From the NCBI RefSeq assembly GCF_013122565.1, contig NZ_CP053258.1: a stretch of 64,000 bases of DNA; one strand, 5' to 3'. The notes under the pieces are model-generated. The model saw only the letters and a program-made list of their open reading frames with translations, was not told the origin of the DNA and did no database searches. The stretch's first letter is position 1. Every line of letters starts with the position of its first letter. This DNA is from Escherichia coli (lineage in GTDB: Bacteria; Pseudomonadota; Gammaproteobacteria; Enterobacterales; Enterobacteriaceae). The position numbers were made by a program, and so were the translations under genes. This document shows positions 4,183 through 56,941 of the stretch, piece after piece.

Positions 4183-6207
<2,025 letters not shown>

Positions 6208-6208
6208 G

Positions 6209-6427
6209 ATGGAAAAAGAGCAGCTGATTGAAATAGCCAATACGATAATGCCGTTTGGCAAATACAAAGGGCGTCGCTTAATCGACCTGCCGGAGGAGTA
6301 TCTGCTGTGGTTTGCCCGCAAAGATGAGTTCCCGGCAGGGAAGCTCGGTGAGCTAATGCAAATCACGCTGCTGATTAAAACCGAGGGGCTGACGCAACTG
6401 GTCCAGCCCCTGAAGCGTCCGCTTTAA
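6209..6427 (+). CDS. ypeB: DUF3820-family small protein YpeB
   Basis: ORF 6110-6427 overlaps the ligA 3' end; start placed at MEKEQLIEIANTIMPFGKYKGRRL one base after the ligA stop. Confidence 0.8.
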   Translation: MEKEQLIEIANTIMPFGKYKGRRLIDLPEEYLLWFARKDEFPAGKLGELMQITLLIKTEGLTQLVQPLKRPL

Positions 6428-7422
6428 GCTTTATCGGCGCTGCTTTCCTGCTGCGCCTGTAACTGTTCGGTCTGGCGTTTGTATCGACGCGCCAGCACCG
6501 CACAGACCATCAATTGGATCTGATGGAAAATCATCAGGGGCAGCACCATCATACCGATCACCGATGTGGGGAACAGAATGTTTGCCATCGGGATGCCATT
6601 TGCCAGACTCTTTTTCGAACCACAAAAGACGATAGTAATTTCATCTGCTTTATTGAAGCCCAGTCGGCGTGCCATAAAGACGTTAACTACAATCACGATA
6701 GCCAGAAGAACGCAGCTGGCCACCACGATAAACAGCAATGATCCCCAGCCAACTTTATGCCAGATACCATTAACGACGGCTTCGCTGAACGCTGTATAAA
6801 CCACCAACAGAATGGACGTCTGGTCAGTTTTCGCAATCCATTTTTTATTGCGCGACACCCAGTCACCAATCCACGGCCGGGAAAGATGCCCTAACACAAA
6901 CGGCAGCAACAGTTGCAGCATAATTTTACCGACCTGCTCAAGGCTGCCCCCTGCACCGTGAACATTCATCACCAGGCCAACCAACAATGGTGAAAGGAAA
7001 ATCCCCAGCAGGCTGGATGCCGACGCAGAACAAACCGCCGCCGCGACGTTACCGCCCGCCATTGACGTGAAGGCGATTGCAGACTGCACGGTCGCGGGGA
7101 GAATGCACAAGTAGAGAAAACCGGAGTAGAGCATCGGGTCGACATTTACCGGTTTCCACCAGGCAAACAGCACGCCCAGAATCGGAAACAGCACGAAGGT
7201 GCTGCACATTACCCACAAATGCAGTCGCCAGTGACCACCGCCAGCAATAATCGCCTCACGCGACAACTTCGCGCCGTGCATAAAGAACAGCAGGGCAATC
7301 GCTGCGGTGGTCAGATTTTCAAAGAAGGGGACGAAATCGCCTCTGGCCGGAAAGAAAGAGGCCAACAACACCACCGTGATCAGGGTTAAGGTGAAAGGAT
7401 CGAGGATACGAAAAAGTTTCAT
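6424..7422 (-). CDS. yfeH: Putative bile acid:Na+ symporter-family (BASS) transporter YfeH
   Basis: 332-aa polytopic membrane ORF MKLFRILDPFTLTLITVVLLASFFPARGDF... Confidence 0.88.
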   Translation of the reverse strand: MKLFRILDPFTLTLITVVLLASFFPARGDFVPFFENLTTAAIALLFFMHGAKLSREAIIAGGGHWRLHLWVMCSTFVLFPILGVLFAWWKPVNVDPMLYSGFLYLCILPATVQSAIAFTSMAGGNVAAAVCSASASSLLGIFLSPLLVGLVMNVHGAGGSLEQVGKIMLQLLLPFVLGHLSRPWIGDWVSRNKKWIAKTDQTSILLVVYTAFSEAVVNGIWHKVGWGSLLFIVVASCVLLAIVIVVNVFMARRLGFNKADEITIVFCGSKKSLANGIPMANILFPTSVIGMMVLPLMIFHQIQLMVCAVLARRYKRQTEQLQAQQESSADKA

Positions 7423-7465
7423 AAAGACTCCAGATGATCGATGCTTTCATTGTGCGTTGTTCTGA

Positions 7466-7494
7466 TTGATAAATAAAACTGAATTGCTTATCAA
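7466..7494. promoter_or_regulatory. Inverted repeat TTGATAA-N15-TTATCAA upstream of yfeH; candidate operator
   Basis: Palindromic arms read directly in sequence about 45-70 bp upstream of the yfeH start; function inferred. Confidence 0.25.
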
Positions 7495-8050
7495 TTTGTG
7501 CGCGAGGAGTGTGAGTGAGTTGCTCGCTCGCTTCGACTGGTTGGCAGAGCGGGGGAGGATATCCCGGATGAGACAAATAAGACGTTCGACAAGAGAATCA
7601 GGTGACTACAGAAAAAATCACAGGATGTTATTACTGCTGATGTTCATGTCGGTTTTCGCGTTATCAGAACTGGTTTTAGAACTGCTATTTAATCGATAAT
7701 GCCATTCTGCAGGAAAGCTTTACCTACTTTATTATTTGCGGTGTGGTAAAACCTGGTCACCAGAGGCAGGTTTAATACCAGACGCTGTCTTTTATCAGAT
7801 ATCCCATGTAAATAATAAATGCAATGAATATTAATTCATTATGTATTTATTTTGTGATTGTTTGGTGTTACTAGTTTGTTGGACAAATAACAACTCTAAC
7901 TAATACATAAACCTTGCATAGTGACAGAGTATCGATCTGAATGTTTTCAACATTGATATCAAATTGCAATTGATATCCGTGGTAAAAAGTATTGGTAAAT
8001 TTGATGAATTTCCGGATATTTAAAGGGGCGGCTCAAAGACGAAGGGGAAG

Positions 8051-9307
8051 ATGGTGAATCTAAAACTACAGTTAAAAGTTCTTTCATTTCTGCAATTCTT
8101 TTTGTGGGGAAGTTGGCTCAACACATTCGGTTCTTATATGTTTATCACGCTGCGTTTTAAGGGCGAAGATATAGGCGCAGTCTACAGTACACTGGGTATC
8201 GCAGCATTAATAACATCAACGTTATTTGGTATCGTGGCCGATAAATGGATTAGTGCTAAATGGATATATGCCGCTTGTCATTTATTTGGCGCGATAACAT
8301 TATTTATCGCAGCATCGGTTACCACGCCTTCGGCAATGTTCATTGTCATTTTACTTAACTCTCTTGTGTATATGCCAACACTCGGTTTGAGTAATACAAT
8401 TTCCTATTACCGCCTACAAACAGCGGGGATGGATATTGTGACAGAATTTCCGCCAATCCGTATCTGGGGCACGATTGGATTTATTGTCGCAATGTGGGCG
8501 GTTAGCCTGGCTGGTTTTGAATTAAGTCATATGCAATTATATATCGGTGCGGCGGCTTCATTAGGCTTGAGCCTGTTCACGTTGACTTTACCAACTGTAC
8601 CAGTGGCGAAATCTAACCAGGCGCAAGGAATGATAGATGTTCTCGGATTGCGTGCATTTACACTGTTTAAAAACAGCAAAATGGCGATTTTCTTTATCTT
8701 TGCCATGCTGCTCGGGGCAGAGTTACAAATTACCGGGATGTTTGGTAATACATTTCTCCACAGCTTTGAGAGCGTTCCAGAGTTTACCAATAGTTTTGTT
8801 GTTACCCATGCTTCTATTCTGTTATCAATTTCTCAGATATCCGAAGTCTGTTTCATTCTTGCCATTCCTTTTTTCCTGAAAAAATACGGTATCAAAAATG
8901 TCATGCTGATGAGCATGGTGGCCTGGATGCTGCGTTTTGGTTTATTCGCTTATGGCGATCCTTCATTCGGTGGTACCATTCTGTTAATTCTTTCGATGAT
9001 TGTTTATGGCTGTGCTTTTGACTTCTTCAATATATCTGGCTCGGTATTTGTTGAACAAGAAGTTGATCCATCGATTCGTAACAGCGCTCAGGGCGTTTTC
9101 CTGATGATGGCCAATGGTTTTGGTTGTATTCTGGGCGGTTTTATCAGTGGTAAAGTCGTCGATTATTTAACAACGGATGGCAATCCACAGTGGTCAACCA
9201 TTTGGCTGGTATTTGCCGGATATTCACTGGTTCTGGCTCTCGCATTTATGGTGTTGTTTAAATATAAACACAACGGTAACCCGACAACGTCCGGTCATTT
9301 CGCCTGA
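8051..9307 (+). CDS. Nucleoside:H+ symporter (NHS family), NupG/XapB paralogue
   Basis: 418-aa 12-TM ORF MVNLKLQLKVLSFLQFFLWGSWL...; by recollection closer to NupG than to the XapB encoded 2 kb downstream; AT-rich; GTG at 8054 is an alternative start. Confidence 0.85.
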   Translation: MVNLKLQLKVLSFLQFFLWGSWLNTFGSYMFITLRFKGEDIGAVYSTLGIAALITSTLFGIVADKWISAKWIYAACHLFGAITLFIAASVTTPSAMFIVILLNSLVYMPTLGLSNTISYYRLQTAGMDIVTEFPPIRIWGTIGFIVAMWAVSLAGFELSHMQLYIGAAASLGLSLFTLTLPTVPVAKSNQAQGMIDVLGLRAFTLFKNSKMAIFFIFAMLLGAELQITGMFGNTFLHSFESVPEFTNSFVVTHASILLSISQISEVCFILAIPFFLKKYGIKNVMLMSMVAWMLRFGLFAYGDPSFGGTILLILSMIVYGCAFDFFNISGSVFVEQEVDPSIRNSAQGVFLMMANGFGCILGGFISGKVVDYLTTDGNPQWSTIWLVFAGYSLVLALAFMVLFKYKHNGNPTTSGHFA

Positions 9308-9361
9308 TACGGAGTTTATCAAAATTAATAATGTTTTATAGGATTCGCAAAAGAGGAAGTT

Positions 9362-10273
9362 ATGGCAAATCAATTGTATAACCAGTGTCGGGTTTATTGT
9401 GCACCCTGGCGATTAGATGCTTTAAATTTAAATGATATCATTGATCAATGGATTGACGAGGGGCTGTTGCCGCCCCTGATCCATACTTTTCTTCCATATC
9501 GCGATGATGCCGGTGCCTCCAGTGAAGAAGAGATTTTTGTTAACGATGTCGCGAATATGGATAACAGTGTTGGGGTTATCGGTTATTTCGATGGTGGAAC
9601 CTATGATTCCGGTTATGCATGGGCTTTAGGGATGCCTGTTCACCTGGTAACGACAGACTTTCTTATATGGGCAGCGGGGAATTCTTCAGAGTTTTATCCT
9701 ATAAGTAAGCTGATGAATTATGTGGCAAAAGTGGTTTCTGTGTCAGATTCCGATACCAGTATCAGCAATTATCGTGAACAAACCGACGATATCATCAAGC
9801 GTGCGTTGCAAATTTTTCAACAAAATTTAATCGCCGACTTCGGCACGACGATTAATCCAGCAGTACCGGTTACTCCATTGCCGATTGAGTATGACTACTA
9901 TATTGATCCTAACTTTATGTATACCGAACCCTCTCGGGACTTACTGGTGAAGATCAAAGATGCGATCATTAGTGCAGGTAAGACTTTCATCGTTGGCGAC
10001 AACATGAATGATATTGCGACTGATATTGATAACTTAAGAAAATCCAGACAGGCCATCTTTTATTCCGATACCTTTGAGCCGAATGTTGACACCGGCATTA
10101 TGAATGGTATTGCCTATGCATTAGGACAGCAATCGATTATTTATTGTAGCAAGCAACAAAAATATCAATCTGCGCTCGCGACAGATTATTTAAATTTAAT
10201 GATTACCTGGTCGTCAACGGTGGCGCATTCATTTGCGGAACTTGAAACATTGATTGGTAACACAGAAAAATAA
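9362..10273 (+). CDS. Hypothetical protein with two repeats of a nucleoside 2-deoxyribosyltransferase-like (SLOG-like) motif
   Basis: 303-aa ORF; motif VIGYFDGGTYDSGYAWALGMPVHLV in the first half and AIFYSDTFEPNVDTGIMNGIAYALGQQSIIY in the second; N-terminal VYCAPW resembles the NDT IYFGAGWF motif; family assignment by eye only. Confidence 0.4.
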   Translation: MANQLYNQCRVYCAPWRLDALNLNDIIDQWIDEGLLPPLIHTFLPYRDDAGASSEEEIFVNDVANMDNSVGVIGYFDGGTYDSGYAWALGMPVHLVTTDFLIWAAGNSSEFYPISKLMNYVAKVVSVSDSDTSISNYREQTDDIIKRALQIFQQNLIADFGTTINPAVPVTPLPIEYDYYIDPNFMYTEPSRDLLVKIKDAIISAGKTFIVGDNMNDIATDIDNLRKSRQAIFYSDTFEPNVDTGIMNGIAYALGQQSIIYCSKQQKYQSALATDYLNLMITWSSTVAHSFAELETLIGNTEK

Positions 10274-10285
10274 TAGTTAATTTTA

Positions 10286-10328
10286 CTGATTATCAGGTGA
10301 GTGATTGCCTGATAATCAGCTTTTTGTT
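10286..10328 (+). terminator. Rho-independent terminator after the 303-aa ORF
   Basis: Perfect 12-bp inverted repeat ctgattatcagg / cctgataatcag with 10-nt loop, followed by cttttt. Confidence 0.65.
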
Positions 10329-10501
10329 AGCCACCAAAGAAAAATATACTGCCGTTATATTTCTCTGCCGGGGAACGATATGATCGATTTCAAAATTATA
10401 TTGAATATCTCTGGAAAATGTATTGGTCACTCGCGACTTTTTCTCGCTATAAAAAAATGTGACTCAGATCTAACGCATAATGCTTATTACAAGGACTTGC
10501 C

Positions 10502-11335
10502 ATGACCCAATCTCATTTTTCACAAAACCCGTGGTATTGCGCAGATATCATTCGTCGTCATAAACCAGACTTTACCCCACGCGTTGCGTTTATTTTGGGT
10601 TCGGGACTGGGAGCGCTGGCTGAACAAATAGAAGACGCAGTTGCCATTTCTTATAGCGATTTGCCGGGGTTTCCGGTGAGCACCGTACACGGCCATGCAG
10701 GAGAGTTGGTCCTCGGCGTGCTTTCTGGTGTGCCTGTAGCCTGCATGAAAGGTCGCGGTCATTTTTATGAGGGCCGGGGAATGACTGTCATGACTGATGC
10801 TATTCGCACGTTCAAGTTGCTGGGCTGTGAATTGTTGTTCTGCACTAACGCTGCAGGTTCGCTTCGCCCGGAAGTAGGGGCGGGTAGTCTGGTTGCGCTG
10901 AAAGATCACATTAATACGATGCCAGGCACACCGATGACAGGCCTTAATGATGAGCGTTTTGGTGAACGTTTTTTCTCATTAGCGAATGCTTACGATGCTG
11001 ATTACCGCGCCGTTTTACAAACCGTCGCGCATGAAGAAGGTTTTCCGCTGACAGAAGGGGTTTTTGTTTCTTATCCGGGGCCGAACTTCGAAACGGCGGC
11101 AGAAATTCGCATGATGCAGCTGTTTGGTGGCGACGTAGTAGGTATGTCTGTAGTGCCTGAAGTGATTAGCGCACGTCATTGCGAAATGAAAGTCGTTGCC
11201 GTGTCAGCAATAACCAACATGGCGGAAGGCTTAAGCGATGTGAAATTGTCGCATGCCCAAACCCTGGCTGCAGCAGAGTTATCACGACAAAACTTTATTA
11301 ATTTGATTTGCGGATTCTTACGCAAAATCGCCTGA
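10502..11335 (+). CDS. xapA: Xanthosine phosphorylase (purine nucleoside phosphorylase II)
   Basis: 277-aa ORF MTQSHFSQNPWYCADIIRRHKPDFTPRVAFILGSGLG..., PNP/MTAP fold. Confidence 0.93.
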   Translation: MTQSHFSQNPWYCADIIRRHKPDFTPRVAFILGSGLGALAEQIEDAVAISYSDLPGFPVSTVHGHAGELVLGVLSGVPVACMKGRGHFYEGRGMTVMTDAIRTFKLLGCELLFCTNAAGSLRPEVGAGSLVALKDHINTMPGTPMTGLNDERFGERFFSLANAYDADYRAVLQTVAHEEGFPLTEGVFVSYPGPNFETAAEIRMMQLFGGDVVGMSVVPEVISARHCEMKVVAVSAITNMAEGLSDVKLSHAQTLAAAELSRQNFINLICGFLRKIA

Positions 11336-11392
11336 AAACAATAAAAATGGCCTCGCGGATGGGGCCATCTCTCTGCGATAAGGAAACGAAAA

Positions 11393-12640
11393 ATGAATAT
11401 CGCAACGCGTTTAAAGGTAATGTCTTTCTTACAATATTTTATCTGGGGGAGTTGGTTAGTTACCCTCGGATCTTACATGATAAACACCTTACATTTTACC
11501 GGGGCTGATGTCGGTATGGCATACAGTTCTAAAGGCATTGCGGCCATTATTATGCCAGCCATTATGGGCATTATTGCCGATAAATGGTTACGGGCTGAAC
11601 GTACCTATATGCTGTGTCACTTAATTTGTGCCGGGGTGCTTTTTTATGCCGCCTCCGTAACTGAACCGAATATGATGTTCTGGGTGATGTTGCTTAACGC
11701 GATGGCTTTCATGCCCACGATTGCGTTATCCAACAGTGTTTCCTATTCGTGCCTGGCGCAGGCCGGATTAGACCCAGTCACCAGTTTTCCGCCAATCCGT
11801 GTTTATGGCACCGTGGGATTTATTGTCGCAATGTGGCTGGTGAGTTTATTGCATCTGGAGTTAAGTAGTGTGCAGTTGTATATCGCTTCTGGAGCATCTT
11901 TAGTGTTAGCGATCTATGCATTAACATTACCGAAAATTCCAGTGGCGGAACATAAAGCCAGTACGACGCTTTCCAGTAAATTAGGCCTGGATGCGTTTGT
12001 GTTATTTAAAAATCCGCGTATGGCGATTTTCTTTTTATTTGCTATGTTATTAGGTGCGGTACTGCAAATTACTAACGTTTTTGGTAATCCTTTCCTGCAT
12101 GACTTTGCCCGCAATCTTGAGTTTGCTGATAGCTTCGTGGTGAAATATCCATCCATTTTGCTCTCGGTTTCACAAATGGCGGAAGTCGGCTTCATTCTTA
12201 CCATTCCATTCTTCCTGAAGCGTTTTGGCATCAAAACCGTCATGTTGATGAGTATGGTAGCGTGGACGTTACGCTTTGGCTTCTTTGCCTTTGGCGACCC
12301 ATCGGCAGGTGGCTTTGTATTATTGTTGTTGTCGATGATTGTGTATGGCTGCGCGTTCGACTTTTTCAATATCTCCGGTTCAGTGTTTGTCGAGCAAGAA
12401 GTGGACTCCAGGATCCGCGCCAGCGCTCAGGGTTTATTTATGACTATGGTCAATGGCGTTGGGGCGTGGATTGGTTCTCTTCTGAGTGGCATGGCAGTTG
12501 ACTATTTCACGGTTGATGGCGTGAAAGACTGGCAAACCATCTGGCTAGTATTTGCTGCGTATGCACTGGCCTTAGCGGTGATTTTTGCCCTGTTCTTCCG
12601 TTATAAGCATGAACCTGATAAATGGCGCAGAAATCATTGA
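11393..12640 (+). CDS. xapB: Xanthosine permease (NHS family)
   Basis: 415-aa ORF MNIATRLKVMSFLQYFIWGSWLVTLGSYMINTLHFTG... directly downstream of xapA. Confidence 0.92.
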   Translation: MNIATRLKVMSFLQYFIWGSWLVTLGSYMINTLHFTGADVGMAYSSKGIAAIIMPAIMGIIADKWLRAERTYMLCHLICAGVLFYAASVTEPNMMFWVMLLNAMAFMPTIALSNSVSYSCLAQAGLDPVTSFPPIRVYGTVGFIVAMWLVSLLHLELSSVQLYIASGASLVLAIYALTLPKIPVAEHKASTTLSSKLGLDAFVLFKNPRMAIFFLFAMLLGAVLQITNVFGNPFLHDFARNLEFADSFVVKYPSILLSVSQMAEVGFILTIPFFLKRFGIKTVMLMSMVAWTLRFGFFAFGDPSAGGFVLLLLSMIVYGCAFDFFNISGSVFVEQEVDSRIRASAQGLFMTMVNGVGAWIGSLLSGMAVDYFTVDGVKDWQTIWLVFAAYALALAVIFALFFRYKHEPDKWRRNH

Positions 12641-12716
12641 CTCACTGATGTAAACAGGGTTTTCCTTGATTGCAATGTGCTAAGTTTGCAGCCTTACCCA
12701 TACCGCGTGGAGCGCA

Positions 12717-13607
12717 ATGATTATGGAAGGTACGCATCGTATTGATCTCAAGTTATTGCGCTATTTTCTTGCGGTCGCAGAAGAACTTCACTTTGGGCGG
12801 GCCGCTGCGCGGCTGAATATGTCGCAACCGCCATTAAGTATTCATATTAAAGATCTGGAGCAACAGTTGGGCACGTTGCTGTTCGTTCGTCATTCGCGCA
12901 GTGTGGCGCTCACTCATGCGGGGAAAATTTTACTGGAAGAGTCACGTCGTCTGCTGGCTAATGCCAGTCAGGCGTTGGCACGAGTAGAACAGATCGGTCG
13001 TGGTGAGGCAGGGCGCATTGAGCTGGGCGTGGTGGGAACCGCAATGTGGGGGCGAATGCGTCCGGTAATGCGGCGGTTTTTGAAAGAGTGCCCTAATGTT
13101 CATGTCTCATTTCGTGAAAAATCACCAGGGATGCAAATGGCATTGCTCGAGCGGCGGGAGCTGGACGCGGGTATCTGGCGGATGGCAATTGAACCCACGA
13201 CGGGATTTACCAGTCTGCGATTACACGAATCTTCGTTTTTGGTGGCGATACCGGAAGATCATCATCTGGCTTGCGAAAACGCTATCCCGTTAATGGCATT
13301 ACGCAATGAATACTTTGTGACGCTGCCATCGGTCCATTCCGACTGGGCGTTTTTACAGCGTGTCTGTCAGCAGGCAGGGTTTTCACCGATGATCGTTCGG
13401 GAGGCCGTAGAACCGCAAACCGTACTGGCGATGATCAGTATGGGGCTGGGTGTGACATTAATGGCAGATAGCTATGCCCAAATGAGCTGGCCGGGTGTGG
13501 TATTTCGTCCACTCGAGGAACGTATTCCAGCAGATTTGTATATTGTTTATGAACAGCAACAGGCAACACCAGCGCTGGAGAGATTAGTTAATGCTTTGAT
13601 AGCATGA
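12717..13607 (+). CDS. xapR: LysR-type transcriptional activator of xapAB
   Basis: 296-aa ORF with N-terminal LysR HTH (LKLLRYFLAVAEELHFGRAAARLNMSQPPLS); start could be the second Met at 12723. Confidence 0.9.
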   Translation: MIMEGTHRIDLKLLRYFLAVAEELHFGRAAARLNMSQPPLSIHIKDLEQQLGTLLFVRHSRSVALTHAGKILLEESRRLLANASQALARVEQIGRGEAGRIELGVVGTAMWGRMRPVMRRFLKECPNVHVSFREKSPGMQMALLERRELDAGIWRMAIEPTTGFTSLRLHESSFLVAIPEDHHLACENAIPLMALRNEYFVTLPSVHSDWAFLQRVCQQAGFSPMIVREAVEPQTVLAMISMGLGVTLMADSYAQMSWPGVVFRPLEERIPADLYIVYEQQQATPALERLVNALIA

Positions 13608-13626
13608 AAGAAGATATCGCAGATAG

Positions 13627-56005: not shown

Positions 56006-56941
56006 ATGGAACCCCTTCGTGAAATAAGAAATCGACTGCTTAACGGCTGGCAACTATCAAAAATGCATACTTTTGAAGTGGCTGCCAGGCATCAGTCCTT
56101 CGCCCTGGCGGCAGAGGAATTGTCGCTGAGCCCCAGTGCGGTAAGTCACCGTATCAATCAGCTGGAAGAAGAATTGGGTATTCAGTTGTTTGTTCGTTCC
56201 CATCGCAAAGTGGAATTAACGCACGAGGGGAAACGCGTTTATTGGGCGCTAAAATCGTCGCTGGATACCCTGAACCAGGAAATTCTTGATATCAAAAATC
56301 AGGAGTTATCGGGAACGTTAACTCTGTATTCCCGGCCCTCTATCGCTCAATGCTGGTTGGTGCCCGCATTAGGTGACTTTACACGCCGCTATCCGTCTAT
56401 TTCGCTCACCGTGCTCACTGGTAATGACAATGTCAATCTGCAACGTGCCGGAATCGATTTGGCAATCTACTTTGATGACGCGCCGTCAGCGCAACTGACT
56501 CATCACTTTCTGATGGATGAAGAAATCCTGCCTGTATGTAGCCCGGAATACGCTCAAAGACATGCTTTAACCAACACGATAATTAACCTGCGCCACTGTA
56601 CGTTGCTCCATGACAGACAGGCATGGAGCAACGACTCCGGAACGGATGAATGGCATAGTTGGGCGCAACATTATGAGGTTAATTTGCCGACATCTTCTGG
56701 AATTGGCTTTGATCGCTCTGATTTAGCCGTTATCGCCGCAATGAATCATGTTGGGGTGGCGATGGGAAGAAAACGCCTGGTACAAAAAAGGCTTGCCAGT
56801 GGTGAGCTCGTCGCGCCGTTTGGCGATATGACGGTGAAATGCCATCAGCATTATTACATCACCACATTACCGGGCAGGCAGTGGCCAAAAATTGAAGCGT
56901 TTATTACCTGGTTAAGAGAACAGGTAAAAACCACTTCATAA
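56006..56941 (+). CDS. dsdC: LysR-type activator of dsdXA
   Basis: ORF 56000-56941; start placed at MEPLREIRN (MSMEPL at 56000 also possible); LysR HTH FEVAARHQSFALAAEELSLSPSAVSHRI. Confidence 0.92.
   Translation: MEPLREIRNRLLNGWQLSKMHTFEVAARHQSFALAAEELSLSPSAVSHRINQLEEELGIQLFVRSHRKVELTHEGKRVYWALKSSLDTLNQEILDIKNQELSGTLTLYSRPSIAQCWLVPALGDFTRRYPSISLTVLTGNDNVNLQRAGIDLAIYFDDAPSAQLTHHFLMDEEILPVCSPEYAQRHALTNTIINLRHCTLLHDRQAWSNDSGTDEWHSWAQHYEVNLPTSSGIGFDRSDLAVIAAMNHVGVAMGRKRLVQKRLASGELVAPFGDMTVKCHQHYYITTLPGRQWPKIEAFITWLREQVKTTS

Follow-up and report, generated by a model that had tools for sequence, protein, structure and literature searches.

The stretch of DNA analysed here, referred to as the window, comprises 64,000 nt of the Escherichia coli contig NZ_CP053258.1. 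Over zipA-ligA-ypeB-yfeH the window is 97.8% identical to K-12, and it is 99% identical to strain XJ5.2. The gene order in K-12 is yfeH (minus strand), an 89-bp spacer, yfeR (plus strand), yfeN/ompK (minus strand), xapA, xapB and xapR. Next to yfeH (minus strand), the window has 628 bp of non-coding DNA and then a nucleoside permease gene, a nucleoside 2-deoxyribosyltransferase gene and a divergent xapA-xapB-xapR group. At the DNA level, xapA, xapB and xapR of the window match their K-12 counterparts with only 72-77% identity, and the identity is back to 99.6% at the tRNA-Lys/Val cluster. The segment from the yfeH promoter to tRNA-Lys (7486-13614) constitutes an alternative haplotype set between these flanks of 97.8% and 99.6% identity. 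The features of the locus are listed in Table 1.

Table 1. Features at and downstream of the yfeH promoter region in the window (strand "." where none is assigned).
Feature	Position	Strand	Remarks
yfeH	6424-7422	-	332-aa ORF; bile acid:sodium symporter family; so annotated in the 99%-identical E. coli XJ5.2
Surviving yfeH-side portion of the ancestral divergent yfeH/yfeR control region	7423-7485	.	blastn homology
Candidate yfeH -10 element, CACAAT	7449-7454	-	ATTGTG conserved between genera, always equally far from the dyad; predicted
Left arm of the inverted repeat, ATTGATAA	7465-7472	+	Ancestral counterpart TTTGAGAA; overlaps the predicted yfeH -35 position
Decayed LysR-type dyad remnant, AATAAAACTGAATTGCT	7472-7488	.	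Ancestral AATAAAATTGATTTATT; 4/17 positions changed, including T to C at 7479
Right arm of the inverted repeat, TTATCAAT	7488-7495	+	Past the end of clear homology; best ancestral alignment GCATCCAT, 5/8 positions
Non-coding filler in place of yfeR	7496-7675	.	Single-copy; only in the 16 yfeR-less E. coli genomes
OmpK/Tsx-family (yfeN-like) gene remnant	7676-7800	-	Alignment to the intact IAI39 gene
XapR-type composite operator	7950-7977	+	ATTGATATC present twice, at a distance of 17 bp; precedes the nucleoside permease gene; separate from the palindrome
Nucleoside:H+ symporter gene	8051-9307	+	PF03825, E = 2e-165; RefSeq annotation of XJ5.2 and IAI39; absent from K-12
Nucleoside 2-deoxyribosyltransferase-like gene	9362-10273	+	PF05014, E = 2e-8; RefSeq annotation of XJ5.2 and IAI39; absent from K-12

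YfeR is reportedly an osmoregulated LysR-type regulator in Salmonella Typhimurium. The earlier note on this DNA had pointed out that its gene is missing beside yfeH, and both the list of open reading frames and a tblastn search of the window bear this out. No LysR-like ORF is listed in the interval that separates yfeH from its next neighbour at 8051, and K-12 YfeR, searched against the whole 64-kb window, found no yfeR orthologue. The only match of YfeR in the window is a LysR-family paralogue at 56048-56539, with 28% identity over 169 residues. Among 5426 complete E. coli genomes, yfeR was detected in 5409, the haplotype of the window was found in 16, and one has no match to yfeH and hence lacks the locus. 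The three counts were made separately and sum as a clean partition would (5409 + 16 + 1 = 5426). Judging from these counts, yfeR seems to have been lost from the window lineage altogether. The haplotype is carried by those 16 E. coli genomes and also by E. albertii, so it would represent either an old polymorphism or a horizontal replacement.

Related genomes show the arrangement in successive grades. The Escherichia genome L008, deposited under the name E. coli and sharing only 92% identity with the window, has the order yfeH-yfeR-ompK-permease-transferase-xapA. IAI39, CE10 and their relatives have the L008 arrangement without yfeR, and the window, XJ5.2, LHM10-1, CP52E and the Z1323 group lack yfeR and carry in addition a ~640-bp internal deletion of the ompK-like gene. 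The yfeR-less junction of E. albertii is the same as that of the window.

A search for a remnant of yfeR in 7486-7675 gave no tblastn match, and the local alignment of this segment to the yfeR region of L008 scored no better than shuffled controls. A mobile or repeated element was likewise rejected, as the filler is single-copy and a distant blastn search finds only the 16 carriers of the haplotype; the filler has no Rfam match. The 77-aa ORF at 7466-7699 was rejected as a coding sequence, having no Pfam match and lying in a region with indels among relatives. The ompK-like remnant that follows has lost its start codon and about 640 bp of its interior (junction 7740/7742), and OmpK residues 231-248 are still recognisable at 7695-7748 (tblastn, E = 1.5e-5). 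Further downstream, the deoxyribosyltransferase-like gene encodes a product of 303 aa, in which the PF05014 match is weak and partial (residues 41-99) and most of the protein is left unassigned by Pfam. Directly 3' of this gene, at 10286-10319, lies a terminator-like hairpin of 15 pairs followed by CTTTTTGTT, which separates the deoxyribosyltransferase-like operon from the xapA promoter.

The earlier note had also described an inverted repeat, TTGATAA-N15-TTATCAA, in the yfeH promoter region. A pattern search located it at 7466-7494 as a single copy within the 64-kb window, and a repeat search extended each arm by 1 nt beyond the original description, to perfect 8-nt arms (ATTGATAA at 7465-7472 and TTATCAAT at 7488-7495) with 15 nt between them. 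The inverted repeat sits 43-73 nt 5' of the yfeH start codon. Perfect inverted repeats with 7-bp arms and spacers of 0-20 nt number 215 in the window, compared with 85-131 in Markov simulations, and the 110 bp upstream of yfeH would contain one or more of them with a probability of about 0.1. The expected count of zero for TTGATAA-N15-TTATCAA holds for that exact word only. Three further inverted repeats of comparable quality were found by the repeat search in the 628-bp spacer. The palindrome is statistically unremarkable, no more than chance gives.

Several known types of site were compared with the palindrome and rejected. For a site of the FNR/CRP family, with the consensus TTGAT-N4-ATCAA, the half-site words stand 19 nt apart, and the best candidate at the correct spacing has mismatches at 3 of 10 positions. 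Consensus strings for Fur, FNR, CRP, IHF, ArcA, CytR, DeoR, PurR, ArgR, OmpR, NAC and DnaA gave no acceptable match.

A different element emerges from the comparison of yfeH loci in 80 species-representative genomes of Enterobacteriaceae and Erwinia, in which the neighbours of yfeH were typed. The divergent yfeR-yfeH pair, with a spacer of usually 89 bp, is the ancestral and almost universal state; in K-12 the start of yfeR lies on the opposite strand, 89 bp from yfeH. The centre of this spacer, TTTGAGAAATAAAATTGATTTATTGCATCC, is strongly conserved, and the 17-mer dyad within it, AATAAAATTGATTTATT, hardly varies over the range from Erwinia to Escherichia. Of the 69 species with full-length yfeR, 65 have it without a mismatch and the other four (4/69) with a single one, and its K-12 copy (positions 6170-6186 of locus L002) corresponds to window positions 7472-7488. 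The core AATAAA-N5-TTTATT was found in all yfeR-containing species sampled (71/71). This core has the T-N11-A form that is typical for sites of LysR-type regulators.

The 17-mer carries 2-5 mismatches in every one of five independent lineages that lack yfeR, namely the window clade with E. albertii, Enterobacter sp. kpr-6, the Pseudescherichia vulneris group, Trabulsiella guamensis and an uncultured Enterobacteriaceae genome. The losses are independent, as the junction sequences differ between the lineages. This co-variation is the main evidence and argues that the dyad, rather than the palindrome, is the element tied to yfeR. From the co-variation and the precedent of the LysR family, we infer that YfeR binds the conserved dyad. 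The dyad overlaps the predicted -35 region of yfeH and probably also the -10 element of yfeR.

One position of the dyad stands out. Position 8, the last T of TAAAAT (7479 in the window), differs from the intact dyad in each of the five independent lineages without yfeR (the window and loci L052, L057/L065/L070, L072 and L081), four times from T to C and once from T to G, and is never changed in yfeR-containing genomes. A hand calculation from the mismatch counts of each lineage, corrected for 17 positions, puts the chance of one position being changed in all five lineages at ~0.008. We speculate that TAAAAT could be the -10 element of a yfeR promoter (TTGTGC-18-TAAAAT), silenced after the gene was lost.

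Two further observations concern the relation of YfeR to this spacer. In a published electrophoretic mobility shift assay, E. coli YfeR bound the fnr promoter and did not shift a 150-bp fragment with the K-12 yfeR promoter, which served as the negative control (PMC11227560). The negative result with the yfeR promoter fits awkwardly with a near-invariant dyad in the spacer. In Salmonella enterica subsp. arizonae (L010, 5319-5911), yfeR is apparently internally deleted, with residues ~43-151 missing in tblastn; the spacer dyad is still intact, and the inactivation is possibly recent.

The part of the ancestral control region nearest to yfeH is retained in the window. In blastn, the homology with K-12 and with over 50 yfeR-containing species stops at 7485 every time, inside the dyad, and the left arm of the inverted repeat and most of its 15-nt spacer fall within this homologous DNA. 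A constitutive K-12 yfeH promoter, TTCTCA-17-TAGAAC, has been predicted in the yfeR/yfeH spacer (Shimada et al. 2014, PMC3946193). Its TTCTCA element, read as the reverse complement, is the K-12 counterpart of the left arm, and the window reads TTATCA there (7467-7472, minus strand). An equally plausible candidate for the yfeH promoter is TTTATT-17-CACAAT (7472-7477 and 7449-7454, minus strand), both elements of which are unchanged in the window relative to the spacer conserved across genera. These assignments draw on conservation and on the one published prediction (PMC3946193), and scans with the sigma-70 consensus called no promoter in the spacer of the window or in that of K-12. Under either assignment the left arm would lie at or against the -35 element of yfeH, which would explain why this part of the spacer was retained after the loss of yfeR.

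The arms themselves vary among the genomes that lack yfeR. The left arm of the window differs from the ancestral TTTGAGAA by two substitutions. In IAI39 and EC42405 the right arm reads TTAACAAT and pairs with the left at 7/8 positions, and in E. albertii the arms are GACGATAA and TTAACAAT, with pairing at 4/8. Perfect pairing is common to the window, XJ5.2, LHM10-1, VE-T9 and Z1323, and on this comparison only some members of the yfeR-less clade have the perfect symmetry. In E. coli VE-T9 (L004, 5265-6650), an IS1 insertion has removed the permease and transferase genes, xapA and part of xapB, and the palindrome is intact.

The origin of the right arm depends on where the deletion is taken to end, which is 7485 according to blastn and near 7500 according to MAFFT (14/22 matches, one gap). 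The MAFFT alignment pairs TTATCAAT with the conserved GCATCCAT and TTTGTG with TTCATG, and the ancestral spacer may persist, in decayed form, to ~7500; a decayed spacer visibly persists in the yfeR losses of Pseudescherichia and of locus L081. The ancestral dyad is destroyed under either endpoint and the conclusion is therefore the same. Taken at face value, the MAFFT alignment derives both arms from the ancestral spacer by five substitutions, all of them toward complementarity (from 3/8 to 8/8 paired positions). Such a set of changes could point to selection in favour of a new dyad, and we rate this as weak evidence because only three states were sampled and no compensatory pattern is seen.

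The word TTGATA, contained in both arms of the palindrome, is enriched in the 628-bp spacer (five copies, where 0.78 would be expected; P = 0.002), and the source of the enrichment is the XapR-type operator upstream of the permease gene. Three of the copies fall in ATTGATATCAAATTGCAATTGATATC (7952-7977), a sequence that L008 and IAI39 have unchanged and that is, by alignment, homologous to the region upstream of xapA. A second, paralogous composite operator of the XapR type lies before xapA at 10381-10408, and both consist of ATYGATA repeats 17 bp apart located 37 nt upstream of GTATTGG. The K-12 promoter PxapA is reported to have two XapR sites, one overlapping the -35 element and the other upstream (PMC7205307). 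A weight matrix for XapR-type sites, built from 25 unique sites with training scores of 18-35 bits, gives +26.3 bits at 7950-7977 and the same at 10381-10408, which suggests that both operons of the haplotype may respond to its XapR-like regulator (12717-13607).

We consider it likely, and hold with some confidence, that the palindrome is a mutated relic of the yfeR/yfeH control region at the scar of a gene loss and not a working operator. In the ancestor, yfeH and yfeR would have been transcribed divergently from an 89-bp spacer with AATAAA-N5-TTTATT at its centre. The deletion of yfeR would have arisen in a minority E. coli haplotype that also occurs in E. albertii. The proximal 63 bp would have survived because they carry the ribosome-binding site and the core promoter of yfeH, and the distal half of the dyad would have been lost or mutated beyond function. 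The left arm would then be the old TTTGAGAA beside the dyad and the right arm junction or decayed DNA, their complementarity being coincidental and complete (8/8) in one sub-clade only. Most likely, yfeH is transcribed from the retained core promoter without input from YfeR, and we infer that nothing specific binds the palindrome.

The proposal of the earlier note, that the palindrome may be a retained operator whose cognate regulator has been lost or replaced, survives in part. The regulator gene is indeed gone, and the left arm and the spacer of the palindrome do lie in the old control region. The window shares with the yfeR-yfeH pair of other Enterobacteriaceae the same locus, the same yfeH and the homologous proximal 63 bp including half of the dyad. 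The differences lie in the elements that would make an operator, as the window has no adjacent divergent gene for a cognate regulator and its dyad AATAAA-N5-TTTATT is broken, with AATAAAACTGAATTGCT differing from AATAAAATTGATTTATT at 4 of 17 positions compared with 0-1 in yfeR-containing genomes. The palindrome, with 8-nt arms and N15, has other arms and another spacing than the dyad. It is missing from all 71 yfeR-containing spacers, where the best match has 3-6 mismatches in 14 positions (mostly 5-6); its absence from the yfeH promoters of yfeR-containing strains is an observation that the earlier note had itself named as speaking against its proposal. The palindrome resembles classical LysR-type sites in its AT-rich dyad symmetry, its position in what was a divergent promoter and its overlap with the -35 region, but its arm centres are 23 bp apart whereas those of a T-N11-A box are ~12 bp apart, and classical sites adjoin the gene of their regulator whereas the palindrome has no adjacent regulator gene and its symmetry is not conserved. 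That an intact YfeR operator was kept after its regulator was lost or moved, and still controls yfeH, is very improbable, even though the palindrome stands where an operator would be expected and its left arm and spacer overlap the dyad remnant; the window contains no YfeR that could act on it, and the genome counts indicate that yfeR is absent from the carriers of the haplotype.

Mutations after the loss might instead have created two ATTGATA half-sites for an XapR-like or other dimeric factor, bringing yfeH under new control, and this we regard as unlikely. The five substitutions that all raise the complementarity of the arms would fit such a development, as would the enrichment of TTGATA in the spacer and the fact that the XapR-type sites at 7950-7977 and 10381-10408 repeat ATYGATA as their core. 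The palindrome shares a word, a spacer and a gene module with XapR-dependent promoters, but in the real sites two direct repeats stand 17 bp apart, with GTATTGG after them, whereas its own arms are inverted, 23 bp apart and without GTATTGG, and the best score of the XapR-type matrix over the palindrome (7440-7500) is -2.0 bits, against the strongly positive scores at both real promoters. Moreover, IAI39 and EC42405 have imperfect arms, E. albertii has little of them, and the consensus strings from Fur to NAC gave no acceptable match. We would give a slightly smaller chance still to the possibility that a dyad built up stepwise (4/8 in E. albertii, 7/8 in IAI39, 8/8 in the window clade) recruits some other dimeric regulator, possibly one linked to the adjacent nucleoside-salvage module; if true, a single species would show the regulation of a transporter gene in the course of being rewired. 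It appears extremely improbable that the palindrome acts at the RNA level, as a terminator or stabiliser hairpin located either within the 3' region of what was the ompK-like transcript (minus strand) or in a leader. In IAI39 the palindrome does lie ~190 nt downstream of the stop codon of the ompK-like gene, on the transcribed strand. However, its stem is A/U-rich with a 15-nt loop, the folding energies of -9.7 and -4.8 kcal/mol correspond to z = -1.6 and -1.0 relative to shuffled controls, the palindrome has no T-tract, no terminator call and no Rfam match, and the ompK-like gene of the window is a dead remnant.

Under the preferred reading of the palindrome as a relic, it is of little importance as a candidate for a regulatory element, and the event behind it is ordinary variation in gene content, already visible in public yfeR-less genomes such as IAI39 and CE10. 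What the comparison provides is a definition of the probable yfeR/yfeH control dyad, AATAAAATTGATTTATT, which decays whenever yfeR is lost. The naturally yfeR-null E. coli types IAI39, CE10, XJ5.2 and Z1323 could be used to test what part YfeR plays in yfeH expression, in the osmotic response and in the reported fnr/biofilm circuit.
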